Shown here one piece after another: positions 845 through 52,656 of a stretch of 64,000 bases of DNA. The stretch covers positions 22,745 to 86,744 of the forward strand of contig JAFRQT010000057.1 in assembly GCA_017428485.1 (NCBI GenBank), read 5' to 3'. A model generated the notes under the pieces. That model was given only the letters and a program-made list of their open reading frames with translations, ran no database searches and was not told the DNA's origin. Each line of letters begins with the position of its first letter. Positions within the stretch are counted from its first letter, which is position 1. Made by a program: the position numbers and the translations under genes. The stretch is from Bacilli bacterium (GTDB lineage Bacteria > Bacillota_I > Bacilli_A > RF39 > UBA660).

Positions 845-1297
845 GATGATATATTTAAATCAAATGCAAAACACATTGCTTTTGCAATCAATACTGAAGG
901 ATTTAATGATTGTGGATTCGCAGGACAAGTTTCATATAAATACTGGGAATCACTTGCAAACTGTGGTGAACATGAAATTGGAACAATACTTTCAAAAGAA
1001 GTTGGAGATAAAACATTTCATGCATTAGTTTGTCACTCATTAAAAAATGGCTGGGAAGATAATCAAAGAGAAGTCATAAAAGAATGCTTTAATAATATTC
1101 CAGCAAACGGAGAAGAAATTGCAACTATTGCAATTGGAACTGGTTTAATTGGAGTCTTAAGTGGCGCAAATTTTAGACAAATAGTTTGTGGTATGCATGA
1201 TTCTAATCAAAAGATATTACTACATAGTGAATATACATTAGAAGACGTATTAAAATACTACGAAGAAGAAATAGGTCGCAGTAGAAAATTAAAATAA
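845..1297 (+). CDS. macro-domain-like protein (tentative); start codon unresolved
   Basis: Manual translation shows a 150-codon open frame from the stop at 842-844 to TAA at 1295-1297 (..KHIAFAINTEGFNDCGFAGQV...IAIGTGLIGVLSGANFRQIV..EEEIGRSRKLK). There is no in-frame ATG/GTG/TTG before codon ~117. The ATG at 846 is in a different frame and gives the spurious 846..1028 track ORF. Confidence 0.4.
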   Translation, partial: DDIFKSNAKHIAFAINTEGFNDCGFAGQVSYKYWESLANCGEHEIGTILSKEVGDKTFHALVCHSLKNGWEDNQREVIKECFNNIPANGEEIATIAIGTGLIGVLSGANFRQIVCGMHDSNQKILLHSEYTLEDVLKYYEEEIGRSRKLK

Positions 1298-3017: not shown

Positions 3018-3590
3018 CTAATTATTTTCTTTATAATTAGATTCATATAAATCAGTATCATCATTTTGCTCTTTGCCTTGAAAAATTATCTCAGGTAAAT
3101 CATTTTTAGAAGAAAGACCAAAATAATCTAAAAAATCATCTGTTGTTTTATATAAGTTAGGTTTTCCTATAGTATCTTCACGACCGCATATTTTAATAAA
3201 ACCACGTGCAAGTAATCTTCTAACTATTTGAGAAGAATTTACTCCTCTTATCTCATCTATTTTAAGTCTTGTTATCGGTTCATTATATGCTATTACTGCT
3301 AAAACTTCTAAAGCAGCATTTGATAATGATGTACTTTTACTATCAGTTACTAATTTTTCATAATATTCTTTATGTTCTTCTTTAGTCGTTAATTTAAATG
3401 AGTTACCTAAATAAGATATTCTAAGACCTCTTTCAGCACTATCATAATCTTTTTTAAGTTCCATTAATAATGCTTTTATTTCTTCATCATTAACATCTAA
3501 TATATTTTTAATTTCATCTATAGTTATTCCTTCATCTCCAACTATAAATAGTATTCCTTCTAGTATTGCTTTTTTATTCACATCAATCAA
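3018..3590 (-). CDS. scpB: segregation and condensation protein B
   Basis: 190 aa. The motif GILFIVGDEGITIDEI...AALEVLAVIAYNEPITRLKIDEIRGVNS is typical of ScpB. It overlaps the scpA stop. Confidence 0.9.
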   Translation of the reverse strand: MIDVNKKAILEGILFIVGDEGITIDEIKNILDVNDEEIKALLMELKKDYDSAERGLRISYLGNSFKLTTKEEHKEYYEKLVTDSKSTSLSNAALEVLAVIAYNEPITRLKIDEIRGVNSSQIVRRLLARGFIKICGREDTIGKPNLYKTTDDFLDYFGLSSKNDLPEIIFQGKEQNDDTDLYESNYKENN

Positions 3591-7104: not shown

Positions 7105-7180
7105 GGCCCATTGGTGAAATGGTTAACACATCGCCCTCTCAAGGCGACATTCATGGGTTCAAATCCCATATGGGTCACCA
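7105..7180 (+). tRNA. tRNA-Glu (anticodon CUC), CCA encoded
   Basis: Hand-folded cloverleaf. Acceptor GGCCCAT/ATGGGTC, anticodon stem TCGCC/GGCGA with loop CT-CTC-AA, and T arm ATGGG-TTCAAAT-CCCAT. The overall sequence resembles Bacillus tRNA-Glu. Confidence 0.85.
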
Positions 7181-9392: not shown

Positions 9393-9420
9393 TTGACAAT
9401 AATTTTGAAAGAATTAAAAT
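9393..9420 (+). promoter_or_regulatory. promoter of small-peptide gene copy 1
   Basis: TTGACA (9393-9398), 16-nt spacer, TAAAAT (9415-9420). The predicted TSS is ~9427-9428, at the start of the conserved GAACAACTGAT element. Confidence 0.65.
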
Positions 9421-9477
9421 GTATTTTGAACAACTGATTGTTAGATGTTATCACACTCATAAAGGAGGTGATACAAG

Positions 9478-9561
9478 ATGATTAAAAAAGATTTTTTGAT
9501 TATGTCATTAGTCTTTATAATTCTATTACTTATTATCCTACTATATGTAGTTTTAATATAA
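9478..9561 (+). CDS. 27-aa hydrophobic peptide, candidate type I toxin (copy 1)
   Basis: ATG preceded by AAGGAGGTGA at 7-nt spacing. Peptide MIKKDFLIMSLVFIILLLIILLYVVLI has a charged N-terminus and one TM-length helix. It falls below the ORF-track cutoff. Confidence 0.6.
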   Translation: MIKKDFLIMSLVFIILLLIILLYVVLI

Positions 9562-9562
9562 A

Positions 9563-9632
9563 TAAAAAACCTAACTAAGAATAGTTAGGATTCCAAACAA
9601 GAACACCTAACATTCGAATATCAGTTGTTCCT
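9563..9632 (-). ncRNA. predicted ~70-nt antisense RNA (candidate antitoxin, copy 1)
   Basis: Runs from the minus-strand promoter at 9639-9667 to the hairpin cctaacta-agaa-tagttagg (9570-9589). That hairpin is followed by TTTTTT only on the minus strand. The RNA is complementary to the 3' region downstream of the peptide stop codon. Confidence 0.45.
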
Positions 9633-9638
9633 ATAAAA

Positions 9639-9667
9639 ATATTATCATATTTTATTATTTTTGTAAA
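9639..9667 (-). promoter_or_regulatory. convergent promoter for the antisense RNA (copy 1)
   Basis: The minus strand reads TTTACA-17nt-TAATAT with a TG extended -10 (tatGaTAATAT). Confidence 0.55.
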
Positions 9668-9789
9668 TATAACTAATTTTTAAAGAATTTGTTATTTTAT
9701 ATACTTATTCTTTAATTATTGATTAATGCTTTTTAACCATTATTTATTATTTGTAAAATTACATATTCAAAAATTAAATAATTAGTGAT

Positions 9790-9817
9790 TTGACAATAAT
9801 TTTGAAAGAATTAAAAT
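9790..9817 (+). promoter_or_regulatory. promoter of small-peptide gene copy 2
   Basis: TTGACA (9790-9795), 16 nt, TAAAAT (9812-9817). Identical to copy 1. Confidence 0.65.
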
Positions 9818-9874
9818 GTATTTTGAACAACTGATTGTTAGGTGTTATCACACTCATAAAGGAGGTGATACAAG

Positions 9875-9958
9875 ATGATTAAAAAAGATTTTTTGATTAT
9901 GTCACTAATCTTTATAATCCTATTACTTATTATCCTACTATATGTAGTTTTAATATAA
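9875..9958 (+). CDS. 27-aa hydrophobic peptide, candidate type I toxin (copy 2)
   Basis: Peptide MIKKDFLIMSLIFIILLLIILLYVVLI with the same SD and spacing. It differs from copy 1 by 2 synonymous changes and V12I. Confidence 0.6.
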   Translation: MIKKDFLIMSLIFIILLLIILLYVVLI

Positions 9959-9959
9959 A

Positions 9960-10032
9960 TAAAAAGCCTAACTAAGAATAGTTAGGTTTTACCAACAAGG
10001 TAACACCTGACATTTGAATATCAGTTGTTCCT
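9960..10032 (-). ncRNA. predicted antisense RNA (candidate antitoxin, copy 2)
   Basis: Runs from the promoter at 10039-10067 to the hairpin at 9967-9986, followed by CTTTTT on the minus strand. It lies immediately downstream of the psd stop on the same strand. Confidence 0.45.
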
Positions 10033-10038
10033 ATAAAA

Positions 10039-10067
10039 ATATTATCATATTCTGTTATTTTTGTAAA
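10039..10067 (-). promoter_or_regulatory. convergent promoter for the antisense RNA (copy 2)
   Basis: TTTACA (reverse complement of 10062-10067), 17 nt, TAATAT (reverse complement of 10039-10044) with TG. The -35 lies in the last codons of psd. Confidence 0.55.
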
Positions 10068-10930
10068 TTATTTTTAATACCAATTCTTTCACCATATTTA
10101 ACTATAGTCTCGATATTCTCTTTTGAATTATTAACAATATCATCATCTAAAATAATTGTATCTTTTTTAAATAATAAAACTATTGTAGATCCACCAAATT
10201 CAAAATATCCTTTTTCTTCTCCTTTAAAGAAACTATATTCTTTATGATGATTTTTAATTCTTCCTACTCCTAGTGCACCAATATCTATATCTATAACTTT
10301 ACCAAAATTATTTGTATTTAATATAGTATATTCACGAGAATTAGTTTTAAAGAAATTATAATGTTTTAATGATATTGGCTGTACCGTATGAAATGTTCCT
10401 TTTATGTAATAATTATCACTTTTAGTGCCACTATCAATATAGCAATATCTATGATAATTATCAGTTGATAATCTAAAAACTAAAGCATATCCATCAGTAT
10501 ATTCTTTCATTATTTTTTTATCTACTAAAGTATCTATACTATAATATGATTCTTTTATTTTTAAAGTTAAATCTTTAGTTATTTTATATGCTAATAACTT
10601 TGAATCACAAGGAGATATTAATATACCTTTTCTTGCATTAATTGGTCTTTTAACTTCTTTTATTTTTCTTGTAAAGAAATCATTATATGAAGTGTATTCT
10701 TTATTTTCATAATCATACATATTTATATTATTTTCTTTAATAAATTTATCTATTTTTTTAATAGAAGATTTACTATTCATATATTTACCTATCAAATTAG
10801 TTATAGGTTTACTAATAGCTATTTTAATAAATAATCTTCCAATAAAATTACCATAAAAAAAATTAAGAGCTTTATTAGACTCTATAATTATATTTTCTTT
10901 ACTATTTCTATTTCTTACTATGGTCTCCAT
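10055..10930 (-). CDS. psd: phosphatidylserine decarboxylase proenzyme
   Basis: 291 aa. The C-terminal FEFGGSTIVLLF contains the G-S-T self-cleavage motif. It overlaps pssA by 13 nt. Confidence 0.85.
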   Translation of the reverse strand: METIVRNRNSKENIIIESNKALNFFYGNFIGRLFIKIAISKPITNLIGKYMNSKSSIKKIDKFIKENNINMYDYENKEYTSYNDFFTRKIKEVKRPINARKGILISPCDSKLLAYKITKDLTLKIKESYYSIDTLVDKKIMKEYTDGYALVFRLSTDNYHRYCYIDSGTKSDNYYIKGTFHTVQPISLKHYNFFKTNSREYTILNTNNFGKVIDIDIGALGVGRIKNHHKEYSFFKGEEKGYFEFGGSTIVLLFKKDTIILDDDIVNNSKENIETIVKYGERIGIKNNLQK

Positions 10931-17813: not shown

Positions 17814-17867
17814 TTATTAAAATATATAAAAAGAAGCATTTTTTAATGCCTCTTATTAATTATTTTA

Positions 17868-20468
17868 TTATAGTTGTGCTCTTTTCTTTCTTACTACAAG
17901 GAATGTTACTGTACTTATGATTGCAACTACTAATAATGCAATTACAGGAGTTACAATTCCAGTATTAGCATTAGTACTAGCAGCTTTTGACCATTGAGCA
18001 TATACAGTCATATTTCCTGTGGCTATAACTGATTCTGTGATTTTTCTACCACCAGTTTTAGAAGTAAACCATCCAGCAAAATCATAACCCTTTCTTGAAG
18101 GTTTACACAATTCTCCCCAAGGAGTATTTGCTGGTACTTCTAATGTTGCAGGAGAACAAGCAGTTCCACCATTAGCATCATAAGTTAGGGTATATTTTTC
18201 ACCATTATTCTCAATCCAATGAGCATATAATTTTTCTACACCGATTGCACCGAATGTTACAGAGTCATCATATCTAACTCCACCTTCATCTTCAGTATAC
18301 CATCCATCGAATGTATAACCTTCTCTAGCAACAGTTATGTTAGATAATGCTTCAGCAATAGTTCCAGTTCCAGTTAGTGTAATTTGAAGACTTGAAGAAG
18401 GTTCACCATTATTTGTTAATGATCCACCATTAGCATCAAAAATAACCGTTACATTTGATCCAGCTGCATTTGCTGTTACAGTTGTTTGTGCTTTCAAAGT
18501 ATCTGAAAGTGCTGCAGTTACAGTTGTAGTGCCTGTAGCCTTACAAGCTATATTAACATAATATGATCTATAAAAACTAATACATCTTTCATAAGTAAGT
18601 TCAGTAACACCTGCTGCCCTACATCTTTCAATTGCTTCAGTATCTAATCTTACACAAGCTTCAGTCGAACCAGTACCAGTACATTCTCTTGGTGTCATTA
18701 AGCTTACTGTAGCCACTGAAGTATTACTACTCGTTACAGTAGGACTTGAAGGTGGATTCGATACATTAGCATATCTTACAACTGCTGTTATAGTCTTTCC
18801 AACTTCACATGTATATTTATCATATTCAAATTGAACAATGCCTTCTGGATCAGGAGAAGGTGTACTTCCTGCTTCTACTACTATGGTAGCATTAGCACTA
18901 CCTGTTGATGTTGTAGCGGTAATTACTGTAGTACCAGCACTAACGCCAGTAACAACACCACTACTATTAACTGTAGCTACACTAGGACGACTACTTGCCC
19001 ATGTAACTGTACCACCAGCAGGATTTGTTAACTCGAATGTGAATGTATCTCCTACATTTATAGTTCCACTAGTTGGATTTAATGTCATAGCATTTCCAAT
19101 AACAAAACTCGCTGTTGTTTTAGTAAATTTATAGTTACTACATTTAGCTTGTCCACCTGTAATAGCTTTACAAGTTACTGTTACAGTATAACTTCCTTCA
19201 TCACTAGGAGCTGTTGTTCCTAATGAAGTTCCATCAGACTTTTTATATTCTCTAGTCCATCCAGTAGATGCATTAATTGTTTCACCTTCAACTAATGTTG
19301 CACTTGGAGTCTGTGAATGTTGCTGTCCATCATGTGGAAAAACATTATTGCTCCATTTTACTTCTACACTTTTTGGATCTATTTTACATTTGAATTCTTT
19401 TGTACCACTTCCAGTACCACCCCATCTATATCCGGATTTTAAACTTGCTGTTATAGTATATTCTCCAGCATCTTTTTGATTATATCCGCTTAATGTCCAT
19501 CCAGTTCCACTAGTTGAAGATACTATTTGCTGTTCAGCACCAGTGTACACAAGATTAGGTTTACATAATTTATCAGCTGTAACATCATTTTCATCGGCAC
19601 TTGAATAAGATTGAGCAGCAGTAACAGTTAATGTTCCTTTTGCCTTGCCAATACTATAGTTAGTACGTTTACCACTTGTAAATTTAACTTCTTTTATTGT
19701 TTTATCACTACTTCCTACATTTGTTTGGCTACCTTCACAAACGCATGATATTTCATCGCTGCCTTTTAAGCCAGACGCAGTACAATTATTATCGGCTGTT
19801 AAAGGAGTACCATCATAAGTTTTACTTTGATCAGTAGCTGTCACTGTAAGAGTAGTAGGCAATATTGTACATGTCAAATCTATAGTATTTGAACCACCTT
19901 CAAATGTATAATTAGAGTCAGCCTCTGCAGTAACTGTATAAGTATCTGCGTCAGTTTGACTATTGTTTTTGTATGATACATGACTACCACCACTTACTAA
20001 AGTTTGAGGCTCACCAGTGTAAGATACTGTATTACAACTACCAACAACAGCACGATTGCTCACTGGATTCCAACCTTGTGGACAACCACCAGAAAATGAA
20101 CCATAACATATGCCATCGTCTACTGTACCGGAATCACCACATGAATATGATGAAATAATTAATGTTCCTGTCCCCTGCGTCCATCCAGTAGCAGAGTGAG
20201 CTGTACAAGCCTCAAGACAAGTTTTATATGTAGTTGCAGTATCAGAAAAATTTAATGTTTCTGCTTCTACGCATGTTTCCGTTGCTGTATTGCAAGAACA
20301 AACACAAGAACCCTTATATAAAGGAGTTGCAGGTTTCGTACACGAAACAGTTGCTGCCTTTACCCTTTCCATTGAATTTTTATTACCATAAGTAAAATAC
20401 AAAGTTGAACATATTAATATTGCAAACAAAAAGATTGGCAATATTAATTTTTTAAAAATTGTTTTCAT
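17868..20468 (-). CDS. large cell-surface protein (Cys-rich N-terminus, MBG/YDG repeats, Big_2 Ig-like domain, Listeria-Bacteroides repeats, NxxTG anchor)
   Basis: 866 aa with a signal peptide. Contains KTYDGTPLTA MBG-type repeats, VTWASSRPSVATVNSSGVVTGVSAGTTVITAT (Big_2), and two GY(T/D)F(D/A)GW(Y/F)T repeats. The C-terminus is NANTG, then a TM helix, then RKKRAQL. Confidence 0.8.
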   Translation of the reverse strand: MKTIFKKLILPIFLFAILICSTLYFTYGNKNSMERVKAATVSCTKPATPLYKGSCVCSCNTATETCVEAETLNFSDTATTYKTCLEACTAHSATGWTQGTGTLIISSYSCGDSGTVDDGICYGSFSGGCPQGWNPVSNRAVVGSCNTVSYTGEPQTLVSGGSHVSYKNNSQTDADTYTVTAEADSNYTFEGGSNTIDLTCTILPTTLTVTATDQSKTYDGTPLTADNNCTASGLKGSDEISCVCEGSQTNVGSSDKTIKEVKFTSGKRTNYSIGKAKGTLTVTAAQSYSSADENDVTADKLCKPNLVYTGAEQQIVSSTSGTGWTLSGYNQKDAGEYTITASLKSGYRWGGTGSGTKEFKCKIDPKSVEVKWSNNVFPHDGQQHSQTPSATLVEGETINASTGWTREYKKSDGTSLGTTAPSDEGSYTVTVTCKAITGGQAKCSNYKFTKTTASFVIGNAMTLNPTSGTINVGDTFTFELTNPAGGTVTWASSRPSVATVNSSGVVTGVSAGTTVITATTSTGSANATIVVEAGSTPSPDPEGIVQFEYDKYTCEVGKTITAVVRYANVSNPPSSPTVTSSNTSVATVSLMTPRECTGTGSTEACVRLDTEAIERCRAAGVTELTYERCISFYRSYYVNIACKATGTTTVTAALSDTLKAQTTVTANAAGSNVTVIFDANGGSLTNNGEPSSSLQITLTGTGTIAEALSNITVAREGYTFDGWYTEDEGGVRYDDSVTFGAIGVEKLYAHWIENNGEKYTLTYDANGGTACSPATLEVPANTPWGELCKPSRKGYDFAGWFTSKTGGRKITESVIATGNMTVYAQWSKAASTNANTGIVTPVIALLVVAIISTVTFLVVRKKRAQL

Positions 20469-20573
20469 AGATATCTCTCCTTATTATCTATATATAATTT
20501 TAGATTAAAAAATTATAAGTGTCAATCCTTTATGTAAATTTTTGTAAAATAAAAAAGACTTTTTACAAAGCCT

Positions 20574-22517
20574 TTATTCTAAATTAATATTTTTATTTTT
20601 AATGAACATATATACTGCAAAGCTTGCTATAGTGATTAACATTAATCCTATTACAGGAGTTGCTATTCCTGTTAATGGATTAATTATTGCTTTTTGTTTC
20701 CATTGAGCATATACGATTAAATTATCTTCTGCTCTAGAATTTTCTGTTATTTTTTTACCACCAGTTTTAGAAGTGAACCATCCAACAAAATCATATCCTT
20801 CTCTTGTAGGTGTACACAATTCTCCCCAAGTTGATATTACTATTTGTTTGGTAATAGAATTGGGTGAGCATGCAGTTCCTCCATTACTATCAAAAGTTAA
20901 TGTTACAGGTGCTGGACCTTCAATAGGATTATCATATATAGAAGACCCTACAGCTTCTACTTCTATGGTTGTACTGACAGCATCATCTCCAGTACCATAT
21001 GATACTGCTATAATTGCTGTTCCACCTAATGGTGATGCTTTTTTAACTAATCCTTTATCTACTGTAAATATGCTTTCATCACTACTTGTCCATGTTGCTG
21101 TATCTGTTACATCTTGTGGTGGAAGTGTTCCATAAACGGCTGACGCTCTTAACTGAGTTTGACCTTCAACAGTTATTCTTTCTGGTAATGTACTATTATC
21201 ATCTGCTGAAAGTTCGATACGCCATGCAGTTTTTCTTATTGTTATAGTCATTCTATCAGTATAAGTATTTCCGTCATAAACTAATCTAGCATTAATACTT
21301 GTACTACCTATAGCTAAGTAGTTTATGTTGATTTTTGCCATTCCACCTGAAGTGTCATTTATTTCTACATTTGATATTTTAGCAATATTTTCGTTTTCAA
21401 TATTGAATTCTACATTTTCTAATTCAGAGTTAGGAATATTTCTAAGTCTCAATCTTACAACTCCACTGCCATTTCCTAATATATGATAAACTTCGGGTAC
21501 CATATGCTTTTCAACGAATTCTATTGATTTTTCTGTATTTGTTGAACTAACTTCTACAGTTGCTGATCTTTCAATTCCATTGGCACTTACAGATACTGTT
21601 GTTCTACCAGAAGATAAACAATTAACTCGAACATACCTACACCCCACACAGGTTGGTTGTAATTCCGGATTAAGTTCAATAGTTGCTATTGAAGAATTTC
21701 CACTTGCATATATAAAGTCAGATGATTGCAATAATGAATATTTTACCATTAAAATTTTTTGCTCTCCAACGTTACATGTTACATCATCTGTCATTGAAAT
21801 ATATGGCTTTACAGTTATTGTTGATGTTGCATTATGTGTACCATCTGATGCTGTTGCCGTGATAACTGCTGTTCCAGCTGCTAATCCTCTAACCAATCCA
21901 TTAGAATCAACAGATGCAATTAATGGATTATTTGATGTCCATGTTACACTCTTATCTTCCACTTCTGCAGGAGTAACAGTAGCTGTTAATTGGACAGTTT
22001 CATCAACTTCAATTTCTTCACTAGAGGGGTTTAGGGTTACACCTGTAATTGCACTAGGAGCATAATCGATAGTTAACCTAGCACTTCCCCTAGCCACAAC
22101 TTCACATGGATCCCATGGATAATAACATGTTGTTTCACCAGTATATGTATATGCATTAACATTTAAATCGAAACTACTACCTGGATTATTACATGTAATT
22201 CTTAATTCAATGCATTTAGAATCATCTAAAGTATGCACATTACGACAAGCATTTCCCCCATCATTTATTGCAGTTGTAACATCATTATTAAAACTAGTAT
22301 ATTTTAAATCAGTAAATTGATATGTATCTGGAGAACCTTCATAATCAGAAGCATGAATAACGAAATAAGTTTCAATAGTTTCTCCTTCAACACATGTATA
22401 ACTGTCTTTCTCTAAAGTAATTGTAAAATTATCCGCTTTTACATTTTCAGCAAATAAACTTATAAATAAAAATGCACTAATTATTGTTAAAACTACTATT
22501 TTAAATTGTTTTTTCAT
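20574..22517 (-). CDS. cell-surface protein (Big_2 Ig-like domains, Listeria-Bacteroides repeat, NPLTG anchor)
   Basis: 647 aa with a signal peptide. Contains VTWTSNNPLIASVDSNGLVRGLAAGTAVITATA (Big_2) and GYDFVGWFTSKTGG. The C-terminus is NPLTG, then a TM helix, then KNKN. Confidence 0.8.
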   Translation of the reverse strand: MKKQFKIVVLTIISAFLFISLFAENVKADNFTITLEKDSYTCVEGETIETYFVIHASDYEGSPDTYQFTDLKYTSFNNDVTTAINDGGNACRNVHTLDDSKCIELRITCNNPGSSFDLNVNAYTYTGETTCYYPWDPCEVVARGSARLTIDYAPSAITGVTLNPSSEEIEVDETVQLTATVTPAEVEDKSVTWTSNNPLIASVDSNGLVRGLAAGTAVITATASDGTHNATSTITVKPYISMTDDVTCNVGEQKILMVKYSLLQSSDFIYASGNSSIATIELNPELQPTCVGCRYVRVNCLSSGRTTVSVSANGIERSATVEVSSTNTEKSIEFVEKHMVPEVYHILGNGSGVVRLRLRNIPNSELENVEFNIENENIAKISNVEINDTSGGMAKININYLAIGSTSINARLVYDGNTYTDRMTITIRKTAWRIELSADDNSTLPERITVEGQTQLRASAVYGTLPPQDVTDTATWTSSDESIFTVDKGLVKKASPLGGTAIIAVSYGTGDDAVSTTIEVEAVGSSIYDNPIEGPAPVTLTFDSNGGTACSPNSITKQIVISTWGELCTPTREGYDFVGWFTSKTGGKKITENSRAEDNLIVYAQWKQKAIINPLTGIATPVIGLMLITIASFAVYMFIKNKNINLE

Positions 22518-22616
22518 TAACCTTCATTCCTCTCTACACTACACATTTATTATAATAGATTTCTCTTATTAAATCAATACATATCTTTTTTTTAAAAAGA
22601 CTTTATATAAAGCCTT

Positions 22617-22856
22617 TTATTCTAAATTCATATTTTTATTTTTAATGAACATATATACTGCAAAGCTTGCTATAGTGATTAACATTAATCCTATTACAGG
22701 AGTTGCTATTCCTGTTAATGGATTAATTATTGCTTTTTGTTTCCATTGAGCATATATGATTAAATTATCTTCCGCTCTAGAATTTTCTGTTATTTTTTTA
22801 CCACCAGTTTTAGAAGTGAACCATCCAGCAAAATCATATCCCTCTCTTGTAGGCAT
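22617..22856 (-). pseudogene. 5'-truncated paralog of the surface-protein C-terminus
   Basis: About 245 bp, roughly 97% identical by eye to 20574..20815, including the stop codon and the downstream terminator-like hairpin. Similarity ends abruptly at ~22856. There is no signal peptide, SD or upstream coding sequence. Confidence 0.75.
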
Positions 22857-22980
22857 ACATATTAATAAAAAAATGCTATTATCTTAAATTTTTCATGTAT
22901 TTTACCTACTTTCTCTATTATAGAGATACAACCATCTAAATATCATGTCAAAATATATGTTGGTTTTTTACGTCAAAATA

Positions 22981-48308: not shown

Positions 48309-50021
48309 CTAACTTTCCATTTTACTAAGTAGTTTTTTATGAATACCAGGTTCAACAATATTAAGTGCATTTAGTATTATCTCTAGGGATTCTTTATAAT
48401 TTCCTTTATTAAATGCTTTAGTAGAAGCAATTAATCCTAATTCTACTTCTCTATTTGTTGATCTATATCTATTACCATATACTATAGCCATTTCAGCCAT
48501 TGCCGCTGTTTTAGTAGCACTAGATGCTGTCTGATAAAGTTTTAATGCTAAATCTTGAGCAGTATCTACTCTTAAATTAAGTGTTCTTATTGATATTGGT
48601 TTCTTTTCAATTTCCTTATTTATTTCACCAATAGCGTCAACTGCCTCCTTAAGCTCAACATAAAATTTTTCAGGTATTATAGGTAAATTATAATCTTTAA
48701 TTTTATATTTAGAATTATTAATTATATTTTTAATTTCAAATAATTGTTCACGAGCACGTGCTTCATCTTCTTTTAGACTACCTAAATTTTTAAGAGTTGT
48801 TTCTAATTTATCTTCTACTTTAGATAAATTTACAGCAACCAACTCACATTCATTATTTAATTTTGAATAAGGCATTACTCTTGCTAATGTTCTATCATTA
48901 ATTAATTTAAAACTTTCTTTAACTTCTAATAAATCTTTATTAATTTCATCTACAACTTTTATTTCTTCATTTGATAAATCATATGTATCTTTAATATTGT
49001 CTATTTCAGAATATAAATTTCTAACTATTGATGACATTTTATTTAATCTTTCACCAACATTAATTATTCCTCTTTCATATTCTCTTTTGCCACGCTTTTC
49101 ATTATCAAAATCAGTATATATTTTTTCATAATAATCAACTAATGTTTTTAAATCAAATATTGAATCTTGTAAGTTTAATACTTTTAATCTATCTAGTATT
49201 TCACTTATCTTTTTATTTGTTTCAGCTATATTGTATTCTATATTTAAATACTCTATATTATATCCATCTCTTTTTAACTTCTGTGCAATATTTTCAATAT
49301 CTTTCATCTTTTTAGGAAGAATCATATTAGATATCAAAAGAATTGTAGGAGCTTCTTCTACAACAATATTAATATTGTTAATCATATCATCTAATGCTTT
49401 TACTATACGTCCAAATTCATCATAATTTTTCTTTTGTATAGCAACTTCAAAAGCACTAAATAACTTATCAATATTTTCAAATTGTAATTCTATAGGAGTG
49501 TTAACTCCAGTATAATCATTTTTATGTTTATTATATTTAAATACTACTTCTCTATATAAACTCTTTAATTTAGTTACTGTTTCTCTATTTCTTTCTTCAC
49601 TTTCAGTTAAATCTTTAATTTCACTTAATAATTTAATTGATTTAGCTTTAACATGGAATATATCTTTTTCCGCATTTAAAAGTAATGTGTTAGCTTGATC
49701 ATAATCAGCATTAACACAAGCAGTTTCTGCTTCAACAAGTTCATCAGTCAAAAATGGTAAATCTACTTTTTCAAGTTCATCAAATCTTTTTTTCCAATCA
49801 TTAACATCAGCTTGTAATTTTTTATTATTAGCAAGTTTCTCTGCCTTATCTAAATCTGTTATTAATGTAGAAGATATTATAAGATTTTTTTCAGTATTTA
49901 ATTTATCTAAATTATTTATAATATTCTTCTTCTTTTTATTCTTAAAAGCAACTATTAAAACAGTCAAAAATATTACTAATAATAAAAGTACTATTCCAAT
50001 TATTAATGTTGTCTTATTCAT
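48309..50021 (-). CDS. ezrA: septation ring formation regulator EzrA
   Basis: About 570 aa with one N-terminal TM helix and long coiled coils in EzrA-like spacing. ATG 50021 after GGAGGA is preferred over the track start at 50033. Confidence 0.8.
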   Translation of the reverse strand: MNKTTLIIGIVLLLLVIFLTVLIVAFKNKKKKNIINNLDKLNTEKNLIISSTLITDLDKAEKLANNKKLQADVNDWKKRFDELEKVDLPFLTDELVEAETACVNADYDQANTLLLNAEKDIFHVKAKSIKLLSEIKDLTESEERNRETVTKLKSLYREVVFKYNKHKNDYTGVNTPIELQFENIDKLFSAFEVAIQKKNYDEFGRIVKALDDMINNINIVVEEAPTILLISNMILPKKMKDIENIAQKLKRDGYNIEYLNIEYNIAETNKKISEILDRLKVLNLQDSIFDLKTLVDYYEKIYTDFDNEKRGKREYERGIINVGERLNKMSSIVRNLYSEIDNIKDTYDLSNEEIKVVDEINKDLLEVKESFKLINDRTLARVMPYSKLNNECELVAVNLSKVEDKLETTLKNLGSLKEDEARAREQLFEIKNIINNSKYKIKDYNLPIIPEKFYVELKEAVDAIGEINKEIEKKPISIRTLNLRVDTAQDLALKLYQTASSATKTAAMAEMAIVYGNRYRSTNREVELGLIASTKAFNKGNYKESLEIILNALNIVEPGIHKKLLSKMES

Positions 50022-50231
50022 AATATCCTCCATATATCATTTTAGCACATAAATAAATATTTTTGTAGTCTTTTCCAAAATAAAATAAGGAATAATCCTT
50101 AATTTTACATTTTATTAAAGCAACTAATTATTTGATTTTATACTTTGTTTTGATATTTAAAGTAATAAAATCTCTTAGAGATTATCAAATTTTGAGTATG
50201 AATATTATATTAATAATTGAATTTTACCAAT

Positions 50232-50259
50232 TTGATTTATTTTTTCTAATATATAAAAT
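50232..50259 (+). promoter_or_regulatory. promoter of small-peptide gene copy 3
   Basis: TTGATT, 16 nt, TAAAAT (50254-50259). The predicted TSS again falls at the G of GAACAACTGAT (50267). Confidence 0.55.
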
Positions 50260-50315
50260 TGTTACTGAACAACTGATTGTTAGGTGTTATCACACTCATA
50301 AAGGAGGTGATGCAA

Positions 50316-50399
50316 GTGACTAAAAAGGATTTTCTGATTTCATCATTAATCTTTCTTATTCTCTTACTTATTATTCTACTTTTTGTAGTTTTAATATAA
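50316..50399 (+). CDS. 27-aa hydrophobic peptide, candidate type I toxin (copy 3, GTG start)
   Basis: Peptide (M)TKKDFLISSLIFLILLLIILLFVVLI with the same AAGGAGGTGA SD and spacing. It differs from copy 2 by 7 synonymous codon changes and 4 replacements. Confidence 0.55.
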   Translation: MTKKDFLISSLIFLILLLIILLFVVLI

Positions 50400-50467
50400 A
50401 AAAGCACCTAACTAGAATTAGTTAGGTCTACAAAGTAACACCTGACCTTCGAAAATCAGTTGTTCAC
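50398..50467 (-). ncRNA. predicted antisense RNA (candidate antitoxin, copy 3)
   Basis: Runs from the promoter at 50474-50502 to the 9-bp hairpin acctaacta-gaat-tagttaggt (50406-50427), followed by GCTTTTTT on the minus strand. Confidence 0.45.
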
Positions 50468-50473
50468 ACTAAA

Positions 50474-50502
50474 ATAGTATCATAAAATAAACAAATTGTA
50501 AA
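50474..50502 (-). promoter_or_regulatory. convergent promoter for the antisense RNA (copy 3)
   Basis: The minus strand reads TTTACA-17nt-TACTAT with a TG extended -10 (tatGaTACTAT). Its position is conserved relative to copies 1 and 2. Confidence 0.5.
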
Positions 50503-50529
50503 TGAATATCAAAAAAATACACAAATGTG

Positions 50530-50616: not shown

Positions 50617-52656
50617 ATGAATTTAAGTGAAGAAGAATTTTCAAAAGAAAAGAAACATCTAGACTTAACTTTAAAACTTTTAAGAGAGCAAATATCAACT
50701 CTTGCTCAAGACTTATATGACAATGAAGAAAAACAACTAGAATTTAAAAAGTTCGTGTGGGATACACGAGCTGAACTTGATCCGACTGAAATGAAAACTA
50801 TTCTTTCGAATAATGAACAAGAAATAGACAACTTAGAAATGAAAGCAAAATACTATAGAAAACTCTATAAAATACAAAACTCACCATATTTTGCAAAAAT
50901 AGTTTTTGAGACTAAGGATGATGGAAAAAAAGATATTTATATTGGACTTACCTATTTAACAAAAGATCAAGATAACATAATCTATGACTGGAGAGCACCA
51001 ATATCAAGTATCTTCTATGATTATGAAAGCGGTAAAGCATCATATGAAGCTCCAGGCGGTGTAATAGAAGGCTATCTTCATAATAAAAGGCAATTTACAA
51101 TTGAAGATGCAAAAATAAAAAGAGTATTTGACTCAAAACTAAATGTTCAAGATGAATTATTGCAAGAAGTACTTGCTAATAAAACAGACGAATATATGAA
51201 AAATATAGTTAATACTATTCAAACAGAACAAAATGCAATCATAAGAAATGTAAAAGATAAAAACCTAATTGTACAAGGAATTGCTGGTTCAGGTAAAACG
51301 TCAGTAGCACTTCATAGAATAGCATTCTTACTATATAAAATTAAAAATTTAACAAGTGATAAAGTATTAATATTCGCACCAAACAAAGTATTTAGTGAAT
51401 ATATCTCAAATGTACTTCCAGAACTAGGAGAAGAAAATACAAAAGAAACAACATTTAGTGATTTTTTAGAGACCTATATAACAGAATACAAATCAATAGA
51501 GTCATTCACATCATTTATAGAAAGATATTACAAATATGAAGAACAATTTATTGATCTTATAAAATTTAAACAATCAAATGAAATAATACCAATTATAGAG
51601 AAATATATAAAGAATTATGTAAATAAAGCAGAGTTTACTGAAGAAATATTTAATCATGAACTTTATATGGAAAAAGAAAAACTAAACTACTACTTAAAAG
51701 AAAGGTACTCCTCTATTCCACTATTTGAAAGAATAGATGAAATATCAAATAAAATAGCTGAAATGGAATTTAGAGGTAATAAATCTAAAGCAAGACAAGT
51801 TAGAAAATGGCTAAGGGAAAGAATTAATATCTCGCTAGACATGAAAGAGATATATAAATCACTTTTTAAAAGTAAAGAATTCATAAGTGCCTATGGAAAA
51901 GAATTACCAGAAAGTTATATAAATAGACTTGATGAAAAAAATATATCCTTTGAAGATGCTTGCTTATTTGTATATATGAAGAGTTTGCTAATGTTCTTAG
52001 GAAATGATTATTCAATAGAACAAACAATAATAGATGAAGCACAAGATTATAATATACTTCAATATATATTACTCAAGAAAATATTAAAGAAAAGTAAATT
52101 CACAATACTAGGAGATATTAATCAAACAATTAACCCTTATTATCAATACAAATCATTAGAAGACTTAAAAACAGTATTCAATGATGGTGGCAATTATATA
52201 GAATTAACTAAAACATATAGATCTAGTCCTGAAATAATTGAACATGCAAATAAGATACTGGGACTTAACTTGGTATCAGCAATTAGAAGAGATACAAAAA
52301 TACCGGTTGAATTTAGAGAAGAAGATAATTTAAAAGAACAACTAATAAAAGATATAAATTCACTTGTTGAAGATAATAAAAGTATTGCAATAATAACTAA
52401 AAATGATGTTGAAGCAAATAAAATATATAATTTATTACATAAAGATTTAGAAGACTTAACACTAATAAGCAACAATTCAAAAACATTCTCAAGAAAATTA
52501 GTAGTTCTTCCTTCTTATATGGCAAAAGGATTAGAATTCGATGCAACAATTATATACACAAATAAAGATAATAAATACACATATGAAGAAAGATATTTAT
52601 ACTATGTATCATGTACGCGTAGTCAACATCATTTGATAATTTATAATAACAATTAA
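50617..52656 (+). CDS. helD: HelD-like (helicase IV / UvrD-like) RNA polymerase-associated ATPase
   Basis: 679 aa. N-terminal coiled-coil arm, Walker A VQGIAGSGKTSVALHRIAFLLY, Walker B IIDEAQDY, and a C-terminal UvrD-like domain (AKGLEFD). Confidence 0.85.
   Translation: MNLSEEEFSKEKKHLDLTLKLLREQISTLAQDLYDNEEKQLEFKKFVWDTRAELDPTEMKTILSNNEQEIDNLEMKAKYYRKLYKIQNSPYFAKIVFETKDDGKKDIYIGLTYLTKDQDNIIYDWRAPISSIFYDYESGKASYEAPGGVIEGYLHNKRQFTIEDAKIKRVFDSKLNVQDELLQEVLANKTDEYMKNIVNTIQTEQNAIIRNVKDKNLIVQGIAGSGKTSVALHRIAFLLYKIKNLTSDKVLIFAPNKVFSEYISNVLPELGEENTKETTFSDFLETYITEYKSIESFTSFIERYYKYEEQFIDLIKFKQSNEIIPIIEKYIKNYVNKAEFTEEIFNHELYMEKEKLNYYLKERYSSIPLFERIDEISNKIAEMEFRGNKSKARQVRKWLRERINISLDMKEIYKSLFKSKEFISAYGKELPESYINRLDEKNISFEDACLFVYMKSLLMFLGNDYSIEQTIIDEAQDYNILQYILLKKILKKSKFTILGDINQTINPYYQYKSLEDLKTVFNDGGNYIELTKTYRSSPEIIEHANKILGLNLVSAIRRDTKIPVEFREEDNLKEQLIKDINSLVEDNKSIAIITKNDVEANKIYNLLHKDLEDLTLISNNSKTFSRKLVVLPSYMAKGLEFDATIIYTNKDNKYTYEERYLYYVSCTRSQHHLIIYNNN

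Follow-up and report, generated by a model that had tools for sequence, protein, structure and literature searches.

A candidate type I toxin-antitoxin-like module between ezrA and helD in an uncultured Bacilli genome

The module and its copies

The window is a 64,000-nucleotide stretch of contig JAFRQT010000057.1 from a Bacilli bacterium. Between its ezrA and helD genes lies a module of about 270 bp, at about 50232-50503, which is called copy 3 here. Its parts follow one another in the order promoter, 49-nt leader, Shine-Dalgarno sequence (SD), open reading frame (ORF) with a GTG start, 9-bp hairpin, 3' element and minus-strand promoter. (The neighbouring EzrA was called as a gene of 570 aa, against an ORF of 574 aa.) Copies 1 and 2, elsewhere in the window, are a tandem duplication of 397 nt, spacer included, and the antisense promoter of copy 2 overlaps the stop codon of psd. 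The features are as follows.

50232..50259, plus strand: mRNA promoter of copy 3, TTGATT-16-TAAAAT, from the promoter scan
50267..50290, plus strand: 5' arm of the predicted long-distance helix, GAACAACUGAUUGUUAGGUGUUAU, beginning at the predicted +1, from MFE and RNAalifold
50291..50315, plus strand: anti-SD CACACUC, loop, SD and spacer to the start codon, predicted to form a local SD-sequestering hairpin
50303-50307, plus strand: SD GGAGG, inside the local hairpin
50316..50399, plus strand: 27-codon ORF with GTG start, peptide (M)TKKDFLISSLIFLILLLIILLFVVLI, under coding constraint
50396..50468, minus strand: predicted antisense sRNA of about 71 nt, the antitoxin candidate, with both ends predicted
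50406..50427, minus strand: predicted intrinsic terminator of the antisense sRNA, 9-bp stem ACCUAACUA / UAGUUAGGU, then a U-run
50435..50465, plus strand: 3' arm of the predicted long-distance helix, GUAACACCUGAC, 7-nt bulge CUUCGAA, AAUCAGUUGUUC
50474..50502, minus strand: predicted antisense sRNA promoter, TTTACA-17-(TG)n-TACTAT
9393..9668, plus strand: copy 1 module, with promoter 9393-9420 and ORF 9478-9561
9570-9589 and 9639-9667, minus strand: copy 1 terminator and antisense promoter
9790..10068, plus strand: copy 2 module, with promoter 9790-9817 and ORF 9875-9958
9967-9986 and 10039-10067, minus strand: copy 2 terminator and antisense promoter

A preliminary description of this DNA had reported a third module with the same parts in the same order, and every sequence feature that it listed is present. 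The scan placed the plus-strand promoter with its TAAAAT -10 at 50232-50259, and the minus-strand TTTACA-17-TACTAT promoter with TG lies at 50502-50474. The hairpin at 50406-50427 has 9 bp, compared with 8 bp in copies 1 and 2, and the loops differ as described (GAAT in copy 3, AGAA in copies 1 and 2). That description gave the hairpin no strand; it appears to be the terminator of the antisense RNA. Copy 3 has a weaker -35 (TTGATT) than copies 1 and 2 (TTGACA), and an in-frame ATG lies at 50310, just 2 nt past the SD and upstream of the GTG. With its weaker -35, its GTG start and the loss of the sRNA's middle stem-loop, copy 3 seems to be an attenuated variant.

The reading frame and its peptide

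In the peptide of copy 3, one hydrophobic helix comes after a polar N-terminus. [quoted passage not shown] Comparison with the ORF of copy 2 reproduced the substitutions reported before: seven synonymous codon changes (codons 4, 7, 11, 15, 16, 20 and 22) and four replacements (I2T, M9S, I14L and Y23F), with the length and stop kept. The start codon changed from ATG to GTG. This pair of copies gives a dN/dS of 0.14, and synonymous and non-synonymous differences are unequally distributed (Fisher p = 5e-4). The wider family also bears out the proposal of a translated, constrained ORF. Every informative pair drawn from 13 distinct ORFs (76/76) has a pN/pS below 1, with a median of 0.43, and with the diverged homolog L030 added, 14/14 distinct ORFs have exactly 27 codons, no frameshift or stop, and a strong SD 8-9 nt upstream. 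In L017, the ortholog in a sister species, the ORF is identical to that of copy 3 at 84/84 nt, against a background of 92.4%.

A 63-aa ORF called over the leader (50132-50323) had been suspected to be spurious, and it is, since a stop interrupts it in L017; this is a point for annotation. The lack of gene calls at the module itself is expected because the ORFs are under 30 codons. Pfam and NCBIfam profile searches with four of the peptides returned noise alone (E >= 2), the peptide had no profile-HMM match among known toxin families (TxpA, Fst, Ldr, Hok, Ibs and others), and a 5.8-billion-protein database queried with the 40-aa extended ORF held no relative.

Leader, SD hairpin and long-distance helix

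The 5' end of the mRNA and the 3' element are predicted to form a long-distance helix of 21-25 bp, both in the MFE structure and in the RNAalifold consensus, with z = -7.7 for copy 3 and -7.0 for L030. A U.G wobble at column 15/195 is found in 13 of the 14 copies, which indicates that the helix works only on plus-strand RNA. Compensatory changes keep the helix in L030 and in L001b. Over the alignment, 9 pairs show compensatory double changes, compared with 2.0 +/- 1.1 in shuffles (0/500) and 0-4 in slid controls. The long-distance helix holds six of these nine pairs, and this support comes from a few independent lineages (L030, L001b/L007 and L009).

The local hairpin that would hold the SD forms in 8/8 anti-SD sequence variants, at -7.7 to -10.1 kcal/mol, and is retained in all modelled conformers. 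The hairpin and the covarying helix together match the intrinsic mRNA silencing of type I toxins, and with the compensatory changes they support the RNA-level function that had been proposed for the module. Helices are also predicted within the ORF. The terminator scan detected no plus-strand terminator downstream of the 3' element in any of the three copies, so the mRNA may run on, toward helD in the case of copy 3. Both transcription start sites (TSSs) and the 3' ends of both RNAs, that of the mRNA most of all, are predictions from sequence.

The leader at 50267-50311 is identical to that of copy 2 (9825-9869) at 45/45 positions, as stated before, with 0 matches expected by chance; it matches copy 1 at 44/45. 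The sequence upstream had been called unrelated, and this is right in bulk, with identity at 53% upstream and 94% within the leader, but two conserved islands remain there, the -10 hexamer and the core of the -35. Reading the invariant leader as a sign of selection also stands in part. Across the whole family, nt 1-27 and the SD are the only parts of the leader that are conserved, and the 45/45 figure overstates the case, a share of that identity likely being due to recent gene conversion from copies 1 and 2. The anti-SD patch points to such conversion: the conspecific L010 and the sister species L017 carry CACATCTTTTT, and copy 3 has the version of copies 1 and 2, CACACTCAT. Leader invariance is also partly imposed by the search, since most homologs were found by a leader-based pattern.

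The antisense RNA and the promoters

In all three copies of the window, the terminator scan found a U-tract at the hairpin on the minus strand only, which suggests that the hairpin terminates an antisense sRNA of about 71 nt. The closing pair of this terminator changes from A-U to G-C in 3-4 copies. The sRNA is predicted to fold into a 5' stem-loop that parallels the mRNA leader sequence, followed by the terminator hairpin; the DNA of the helix 3' arm (50435..50465) encodes this stem-loop on its opposite strand. A U.G pair in the stem (10/14 copies) forms only on minus-strand RNA. The sRNA would be fully complementary to the mRNA 3' UTR, with a perfect overlap of about 70 nt, and in the predicted cofold the sRNA:mRNA duplex is favoured over the closed mRNA by about 66 kcal/mol. 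In silico, then, the module has the separate antisense RNA with extended complementarity of a type I system.

Among the 14 copies, no stretch upstream of the leader is invariant apart from the core of the -35 and the -10 hexamer. The antisense promoter site is conserved family-wide; L010 and L017 keep both hexamers and the 17-nt spacing, and the spacer sequence varies. Judged by this pattern of conservation, both promoters are phylogenetic footprints. In DNA of 26% GC such as this, promoter-like hexamers are frequent (9 found vs 5.6 expected).

Distribution, gain and decay

There are 14 near-full copies in total, and the diverged L030. The copies belong to low-GC, uncultured Bacilli of rumen and gut metagenomes. 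Six or more chromosomal sites carry the module, there are tandem arrays, and relatives have clean empty sites: the gatD-psd site is empty in L021-L029, and the ezrA-helD site is empty in L019/L020. This agrees with the earlier view of an autonomous dispersed module. Plasmid, phage and viral-contig collections held no module, only short AT-rich chance matches, and a hit from the genome scan in a Tenericutes MAG (L003) was discarded as a chance match to a 21-mer. Metagenome assemblies seem to break at gatD on account of the tandem array, as many of the contigs with gatD homologs are just 1-2 kb long.

Some copies seem to be decaying. L017 has lost the -10 of the toxin mRNA to an 18-nt deletion and still has its antisense promoter; the toxin ORF of L032 is cut short by an IS21-like element next to it. 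Both losses are indirect hints of toxicity. The full identity of the L017 ORF to copy 3 would be odd if the gene were dead there, and the promoter deletion may be recent or the assembly imperfect.

Proposed mechanism and alternatives

Altogether this suggests that copy 3 is probably a functional member of a previously undescribed type I TA-like family, for which a mechanism can be proposed. A sigma-A-type promoter would drive an mRNA of about 200 nt for the 27-residue hydrophobic peptide, presumed to be a membrane toxin; its toxicity is suggested by the character of the peptide and the genomic behaviour of the module. The mRNA would protect and silence itself in two ways: the local anti-SD hairpin would hold the SD, and the first ~24 nt would pair with the 3'-UTR element to close a panhandle. 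A convergent promoter would produce the antisense sRNA of about 71 nt, ending at its own terminator just past the stop codon and perfectly complementary to the mRNA 3' UTR, the 3' arm of the panhandle included. Because it is complementary to that arm, the 5' domain of the sRNA has nearly the same sequence as the leader and would compete with it. Binding would probably nucleate at the conserved 7-nt bulge or the hairpin loops. The bound sRNA would then displace the leader and form a duplex of ~70 bp, which should be cleaved by RNase III; the mRNA would be open to decay, and its translation-initiation region may be locked further.

A more specific version of this reading is possible but offered tentatively. 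Here the family would be lineage-restricted, the antitoxin would effectively be a paralogue of the toxin mRNA leader, and repression would work by toehold strand displacement. The sRNA would nucleate at the conserved 7-nt bulge or a UCGA-type loop on the 5'-3' panhandle, and displacement would leave the two mRNA ends open to RNase J1 and RNase III. Such modules would be gained at housekeeping intergenic sites, undergo concerted evolution, and degenerate when the promoter is deleted or an IS inserts.

The module might instead be a gene for a non-toxic small membrane peptide under cis-antisense control, with a physiological role such as modulating a membrane protein. The peptide matches no toxin family, and the copies lie in chromosomal housekeeping neighbourhoods rather than on plasmids or phages, as such a gene might. 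But tandem multi-copy arrays, lineage-specific presence or absence at six or more unrelated sites, clean empty sites, a lost toxin promoter beside a kept antisense promoter, and disruption by an IS are all typical of selfish type I TA modules and unusual for a housekeeping small protein; and SD sequestration together with 5'-3' closure is the toxin mRNA hallmark (PMC5416894, PMC6562991). We consider a non-toxic role unlikely. It is far less probable that the ORF goes untranslated and the locus makes a pair of non-coding RNAs, even though the peptide is missing from the protein database under the extended-ORF query, public assemblies of the same genome have no gene call at the module, and helices are predicted inside the ORF. 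Such a pair would not be expected to keep 27 codons and a strong SD in every distinct variant, to hold pN/pS under 1 in every informative pair, or to show seven synonymous changes vs four conservative replacements between copies 3 and 2.

An inverted repeat does flank the ORF, and the module sits at several unrelated chromosomal sites that are empty in relatives, as would a MITE-like mobile element whose terminal inverted repeats were the leader and 3' element, with the ORF and RNA structures incidental. However, homology between copies runs about 35 nt past both arms of the inverted repeat and includes both promoters, and the helix has compensatory changes and G.U wobbles that pair on the plus strand only; the homology beyond the repeats and the RNA-specific wobbles led us to reject this reading. 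The tandem duplication of copies 1 and 2 with their spacer, the coding constraint on the ORF, the lack of an associated transposase and the lack of a match in viral or plasmid collections also speak against such an element, which we regard as very improbable. An antisense RNA of the Fst/RNAII (par) or SprA1/SprA1as type, which pairs mainly with the 5' region and SD of the mRNA outside the overlap, is scarcely credible. The two RNAs do converge on one hairpin with the antisense clear of the ORF, and T1TAdb names Fst/RNAII and SprA1/SprA1as as the families without such an overlap (PMC8594479). But the DNA carries the repeated blocks in inverted orientation, which gives the 5' domain of the sRNA the sense of the leader, so that the two are not complementary. 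Duplexes of the sRNA with the mRNA 5' 80 nt gave p = 0.13, 0.003 and 0.64 against shuffles for the three copies, and pairing in trans with the SD region was rejected because these energies are not consistently better than those of shuffles. The peptide also has no charged C-terminal tail and no Pfam match at E <= 10.

Significance

Type I toxin-antitoxin loci are rarely annotated, and homology searches find them with difficulty. This family escapes Rfam, Pfam, NCBIfam and gene callers, yet it is multi-copy in a rumen and gut Bacilli clade. It would be a compact natural example of bsrG/SR4-type logic, in which the toxin mRNA is a closed loop and the closing helix is the antitoxin target. The compensatory changes, empty sites and decayed copies are ready-made comparative data.

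Comparison with known type I systems

At gathering thresholds, an Rfam scan of the whole window found one tRNA only. Permissive Rfam scans of both module regions gave chance-level matches only (tsr26 at 21-26 bits vs 141), and the BsrG model (RF01412) scored 9.9 bits vs its 55-bit gathering threshold, with E = 6, which places the module outside that family.

In hok/Sok of E. coli R1 and aapA1/IsoA1 of H. pylori, as predicted for the module, a 5'-3' interaction closes the full-length mRNA, and this closure gives stability and poor translation (PMC5416894). These systems are Gram-negative, their peptides are unrelated, and their antisense RNA is directed at the 5' part of an activated, 3'-processed mRNA (PMC5416894), whereas that of the module would target the 3' arm of the helix. 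The antisense gene lies wholly in the 3' UTR, and membership of the hok/Sok or AapA/IsoA type was rejected.

Gram-positive type I families as a rule place the antisense RNA on the 3' side (PMC8594479). In fst/RNAII (par, pAD1) of Enterococcus faecalis, the RNAs converge around a hairpin just past the ORF, the antisense does not overlap the ORF, and a 5' structure sequesters the SD, all as predicted for the module (PMC7472228, PMC8594479). In par, however, direct repeats let RNAII pair with the RNA I 5' end, and the terminator is truly bidirectional (PMC7472228, PMC8594479), whereas the module's terminator works on one strand, its repeats are inverted and Fst features are absent.

The excerpts of PMC6562991 and PMC3531473 describe txpA/RatA, bsrE/SR5 and yonT/SR6 of B. 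subtilis as convergent transcripts that overlap 3'-3', like those of the module, with an antitoxin that promotes RNase III-dependent decay. They also describe a sequestered RBS or a weak GUG start (yonT), which parallels the GTG of copy 3; a 5'-3' closing helix goes unmentioned in these excerpts. No homology to these systems was detected, and their antitoxins overlap the ORF (PMC8594479).

The closest mechanistic parallel seems to be bsrG/SR4 of B. subtilis. Nucleotides 1-35 of bsrG mRNA pair with nt 232-262, the 3' half of this helix is also the pairing partner of SR4, whose binding frees the leader, and the duplex is an RNase III substrate; both decay and further locking of the translation-initiation region have been shown on antitoxin binding (PMC3834814). 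The module likewise has a small hydrophobic peptide gene with a convergent antisense RNA on its 3' side, a 5'-3' helix whose 3' half would be the antitoxin target, and an SD in a short local helix. The differences are that the peptides are unrelated, the module's having 27 aa, an N-terminal KK and no charged C-terminal tail; that the antisense RNAs of the BsrE-G-H group also overlap the ORF (T1TAdb, PMC8594479), whereas the module's overlap of ~70 nt stops at the stop codon; that the module has no visible mRNA terminator beyond the helix; and that, as far as seen, it does not lie on a prophage-like element. By analogy, these likenesses support the view that the module may work like bsrG/SR4 from outside that family. 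Given this precedent the principle is not new, and what is new is a minimal and very clean implementation of it.

A third copy of the module between ezrA and a helicase gene

The third copy of the module lies between ezrA and a helicase gene, and since these two genes are divergent it sits between their promoters. The features of this region are:

48309-50021, minus strand, ezrA (PF06160)
50232-50503, module copy 3
50316-50399, plus strand, copy 3 ORF, GTG start, 8 nt after GGAGG
~50468 to ~50396, minus strand, predicted antisense sRNA of ~71 nt
50617-52656, plus strand, UvrD/HelD-type helicase gene

A three-way alignment bore out the preliminary description, in which copy 3 has the same parts in the same order as copies 1 and 2 (9393-9668 and 9790-10068): plus-strand promoter, leader, ribosome-binding motif (SD), 27-codon ORF, hairpin, leader-complementary element and minus-strand promoter. 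Consensus scans recovered both promoters described for copy 3, TTGATT-16-TAAAAT on the plus strand and TTTACA-17-TACTAT with TG on the minus strand, and the corresponding sites turned up in copies 1 and 2 as well. The 45 nt of leader at 50267-50311 match 45/45 at 9825 in copy 2, as had been claimed, and 44/45 at 9428; these three occurrences in the window compare with a chance expectation of zero. With its TTGATT -35, its GTG start and the loss of the middle stem of the sRNA, copy 3 looks attenuated. It is kept at the same site in both conspecific and sister-species contigs.

The region upstream of ezrA also has, directly to the left of copy 3, a perfect 7-1-7 DNA palindrome, AATCTCT-T-AGAGATT (50169-50183). 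It is kept in the sister-species contig L017 and might serve as an operator or form a small hairpin. Elsewhere in the window there is a 267-nt repeat family (17841-18107, 20550-20816 and 22593-22859); identity to the reference copy at 20550 is 93% for the one at 22593 and 65% for the one at 17841. The repeat copy at 22617-22856 is a 79-aa ORF, apparently duplicated and detached from the C-terminal end of the 647-aa ORF (20574-22517); an 866-aa ORF (17868-20468) has that same end. The tRNA gene at 7105-7177 is the only Rfam gathering-level match in the 64-kb window.

A constrained 27-codon ORF

The counts reported for copy 3 against copy 2, seven synonymous codon changes and four replacements, are exact, with a start-codon change in addition. 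They correspond to dN/dS = 0.14 (Fisher p = 5e-4), and pN/pS is below 1 in 76/76 informative ORF pairs, with a median of 0.43. All 13 distinct ORFs, and that of the diverged module L030, are exactly 27 codons long, with neither stop nor frameshift. The ORF is coding, as had been proposed. The replacements swap one hydrophobic residue for another, and the alignment of 13 module peptides shows no change at K3, K4, L7, I8 or the C-terminal LI.

A broken ORF with an intact RNA, the pattern that the preliminary description associated with a pure sRNA, was found in none of the intact modules. The sole broken ORF, in contig L032 (~1000-1160, minus strand), is cut off beside an IS21-like element: the L030-type module ends after codon 21 with unrelated sequence beyond, so that its 3' half is lost too, and the directly adjoining IS21-like genes are IstB and an rve-type transposase.

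Long-distance helix and SD hairpin in the mRNA

The first ~24 nt of the mRNA are predicted to pair with 50435-50465, provided that the plus-strand RNA reaches 50465. The helix is laid out as 12 bp, a 7-nt bulge and 12 bp, with an MFE of -61 kcal/mol and z = -7.7 for copy 3. RNAalifold on 14 copies keeps the long-distance helix, the SD hairpin and the terminator, and a U.G wobble in 13 of the 14 copies indicates that the helix is specific to plus-strand RNA.

Covariation was thin in the first homolog set (three double-change pairs, otherwise invariance), in part because those homologs had been collected with the leader pattern. One diverged member was found through synteny and nhmmer, with the leader not used:

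L030 824-1045, minus strand, diverged module, TTG start, 27-aa peptide MNKKDFLIIVLLIFILLLILLLYIVLI

L030 retains the same fold (z = -7.0) with compensatory changes in the long-distance helix: A-U to U-G, C-G to U-A, G-C to A-U and A-U to G-C. Once L030 is added, there are 9 double-change pairs, six of them in this helix, vs 2.0 +/- 1.1 in shuffles (0/500 reach 9) and 0-4 in slid controls. The covariation support is good but not overwhelming, because few independent lineages contribute the events.

The leader varies most in the stretch from the 5' arm of this helix to the SD. All 8 sequence variants of this stretch fold so that GGAGGUG is paired to a pyrimidine-rich anti-SD (-7.7 to -10.1 kcal/mol), and the SD hairpin stays in models of the mRNA closed, cut at the terminator hairpin, or bound by the sRNA at its 3' UTR. 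Once freed, the copy 2 leader can pair weakly with the start-codon region in folding.

The preliminary description read the invariant leader as a sign of RNA-level function. The identity itself stands, and its cause seems to be only partly purifying selection. The conspecific contig L010 and the sister species L017 have a common anti-SD patch, CACATCTTTTT, and the window's copy 3 has CACACTCAT, the exact copy-1/2 sequence. The two patches differ by several substitutions and a 2-nt indel, clustered between otherwise identical flanks, and the simplest reading from the sequences is that gene conversion recently carried the sequence of copies 1/2 into copy 3, which would make the 45/45 match partly homogenisation. 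Family-wide, conservation of the leader covers the 5' arm (nt 1-27) and the SD.

A predicted antisense sRNA

Terminator scoring finds the hairpin to be an intrinsic terminator on the minus strand only, in 3/3 window copies. Its U-run is the complement of the A-run after the ORF stop codon, and the plus strand 3' of the stem is neither U-rich nor conserved. Together with the conserved minus-strand promoter, this predicts an antisense sRNA made of a 5' stem-loop and the terminator, with a small middle stem-loop in most copies that copy 3 has lost. In 10 of 14 copies the 5' stem includes a U.G pair, which would be a C.A mismatch on the opposite strand and so points to selection on the minus-strand RNA.

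At copy 2 the antisense promoter (10039-10067, minus strand) overlaps the last codons and stop of a neighboring gene:

10055-10930, minus strand, psd (phosphatidylserine decarboxylase)

No terminator was found between the psd stop and the copy 2 sRNA terminator (9967-9986), so psd read-through RNA would carry the whole antitoxin sequence as its 3' UTR. In relatives with an empty site, the psd end directly abuts the gatD terminator hairpin.

Distribution and turnover

The window genome is also present in public assemblies as L012, L015 and L016 (99.97-100% identity), which have no gene calls over either module region. Copy 3 is kept between ezrA and helD in L010 (98.4% identity) and in L017 (92.4% identity), where the ORF is 84/84 identical. 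An 18-nt deletion in L017 (~3279-3300, minus strand; window 50248-50265 is the orthologous stretch) takes out the -10 box of the predicted toxin, and the leader 5' arm has a T8A mismatch; the hexamers of the antisense promoter are intact. In relatives further away (EzrA 81% identical) this site has a 130-aa gene and no module. At the other site, gatD and psd abut in relatives with GatD 73-79% identical, so the array formed by copies 1 and 2 in tandem is a lineage-specific insertion. Other contigs hold the module at these sites, with the gene names of the first two sites assigned by eye from translation:

L001, L007, L009: beside a putative glycosyltransferase gene
L004, L005, L008: between putative DHH-family and short-chain-dehydrogenase genes
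L011: a further site
L030: between spoVAC and murT

In L024-L026 (259-1131) the spoVAC-murT slot, which in L030 holds the diverged module, has a KilA-N domain gene. Copy 3 is nearer to L005 and L011 than to copies 1 and 2 and is therefore no recent local duplicate, in agreement with the dispersal first proposed. The module was not found in plasmid, phage and viral-contig collections. Public records label the lineage 'Bacilli bacterium' or 'uncultured Clostridia', and spoVA genes occur in the neighborhood. Many public contigs with gatD homologs are only 1-2 kb, and L013 and L014 stop just where the module array begins, a sign that metagenome assemblies may break at the tandem repeat.

Proposed mechanism and comparison with known systems

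From the stop codon through the end of the 3' arm, the mRNA has perfect complementarity to the predicted sRNA, and the duplex is predicted to be ~66 kcal/mol more favorable than the two free RNAs. Pairing with the 3' arm means that the 5' domain of the sRNA nearly repeats the mRNA leader in sequence, the difference being ~8 additional nt which form the sRNA loop. The same nucleotides make up the 7-nt bulge of the closed mRNA, and in the folding model this bulge would be an obvious single-stranded landing site. The sRNA may enter the mRNA there or at the hairpin loops and displace the leader, giving a ~70-bp RNase III substrate; upon invasion the mRNA 5' end would lose its protection.

Rfam, Pfam and NCBIfam gave no match to the module. 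Membership in the bsrG, fst, txpA or hok families was rejected for lack of a sequence match, and the par design is excluded because the module's repeats are inverted, not direct. From sequence and analogy, the best description of the module is a new family of a known kind, the type I toxin-antitoxin systems, with toxicity, transcript ends and the role of RNase as predictions. Its 3'-side antisense follows the general Gram-positive type I layout (PMC8594479), and its 5'-3' closure resembles that of hok and aapA1 (PMC5416894). The likely way of working is like that of bsrG/SR4 in B. subtilis, where nt 1-35 of bsrG pair with nt 232-262 and SR4 targets the 3' half of that helix; once SR4 is bound, nt 1-33 are released and the SD is sequestered by 8 bp instead of 4 (PMC3834814), and SR4 promotes RNase III-dependent bsrG decay (PMC3834814; PMC6562991). 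The logic experimentally established for bsrG/SR4 is the one proposed here.
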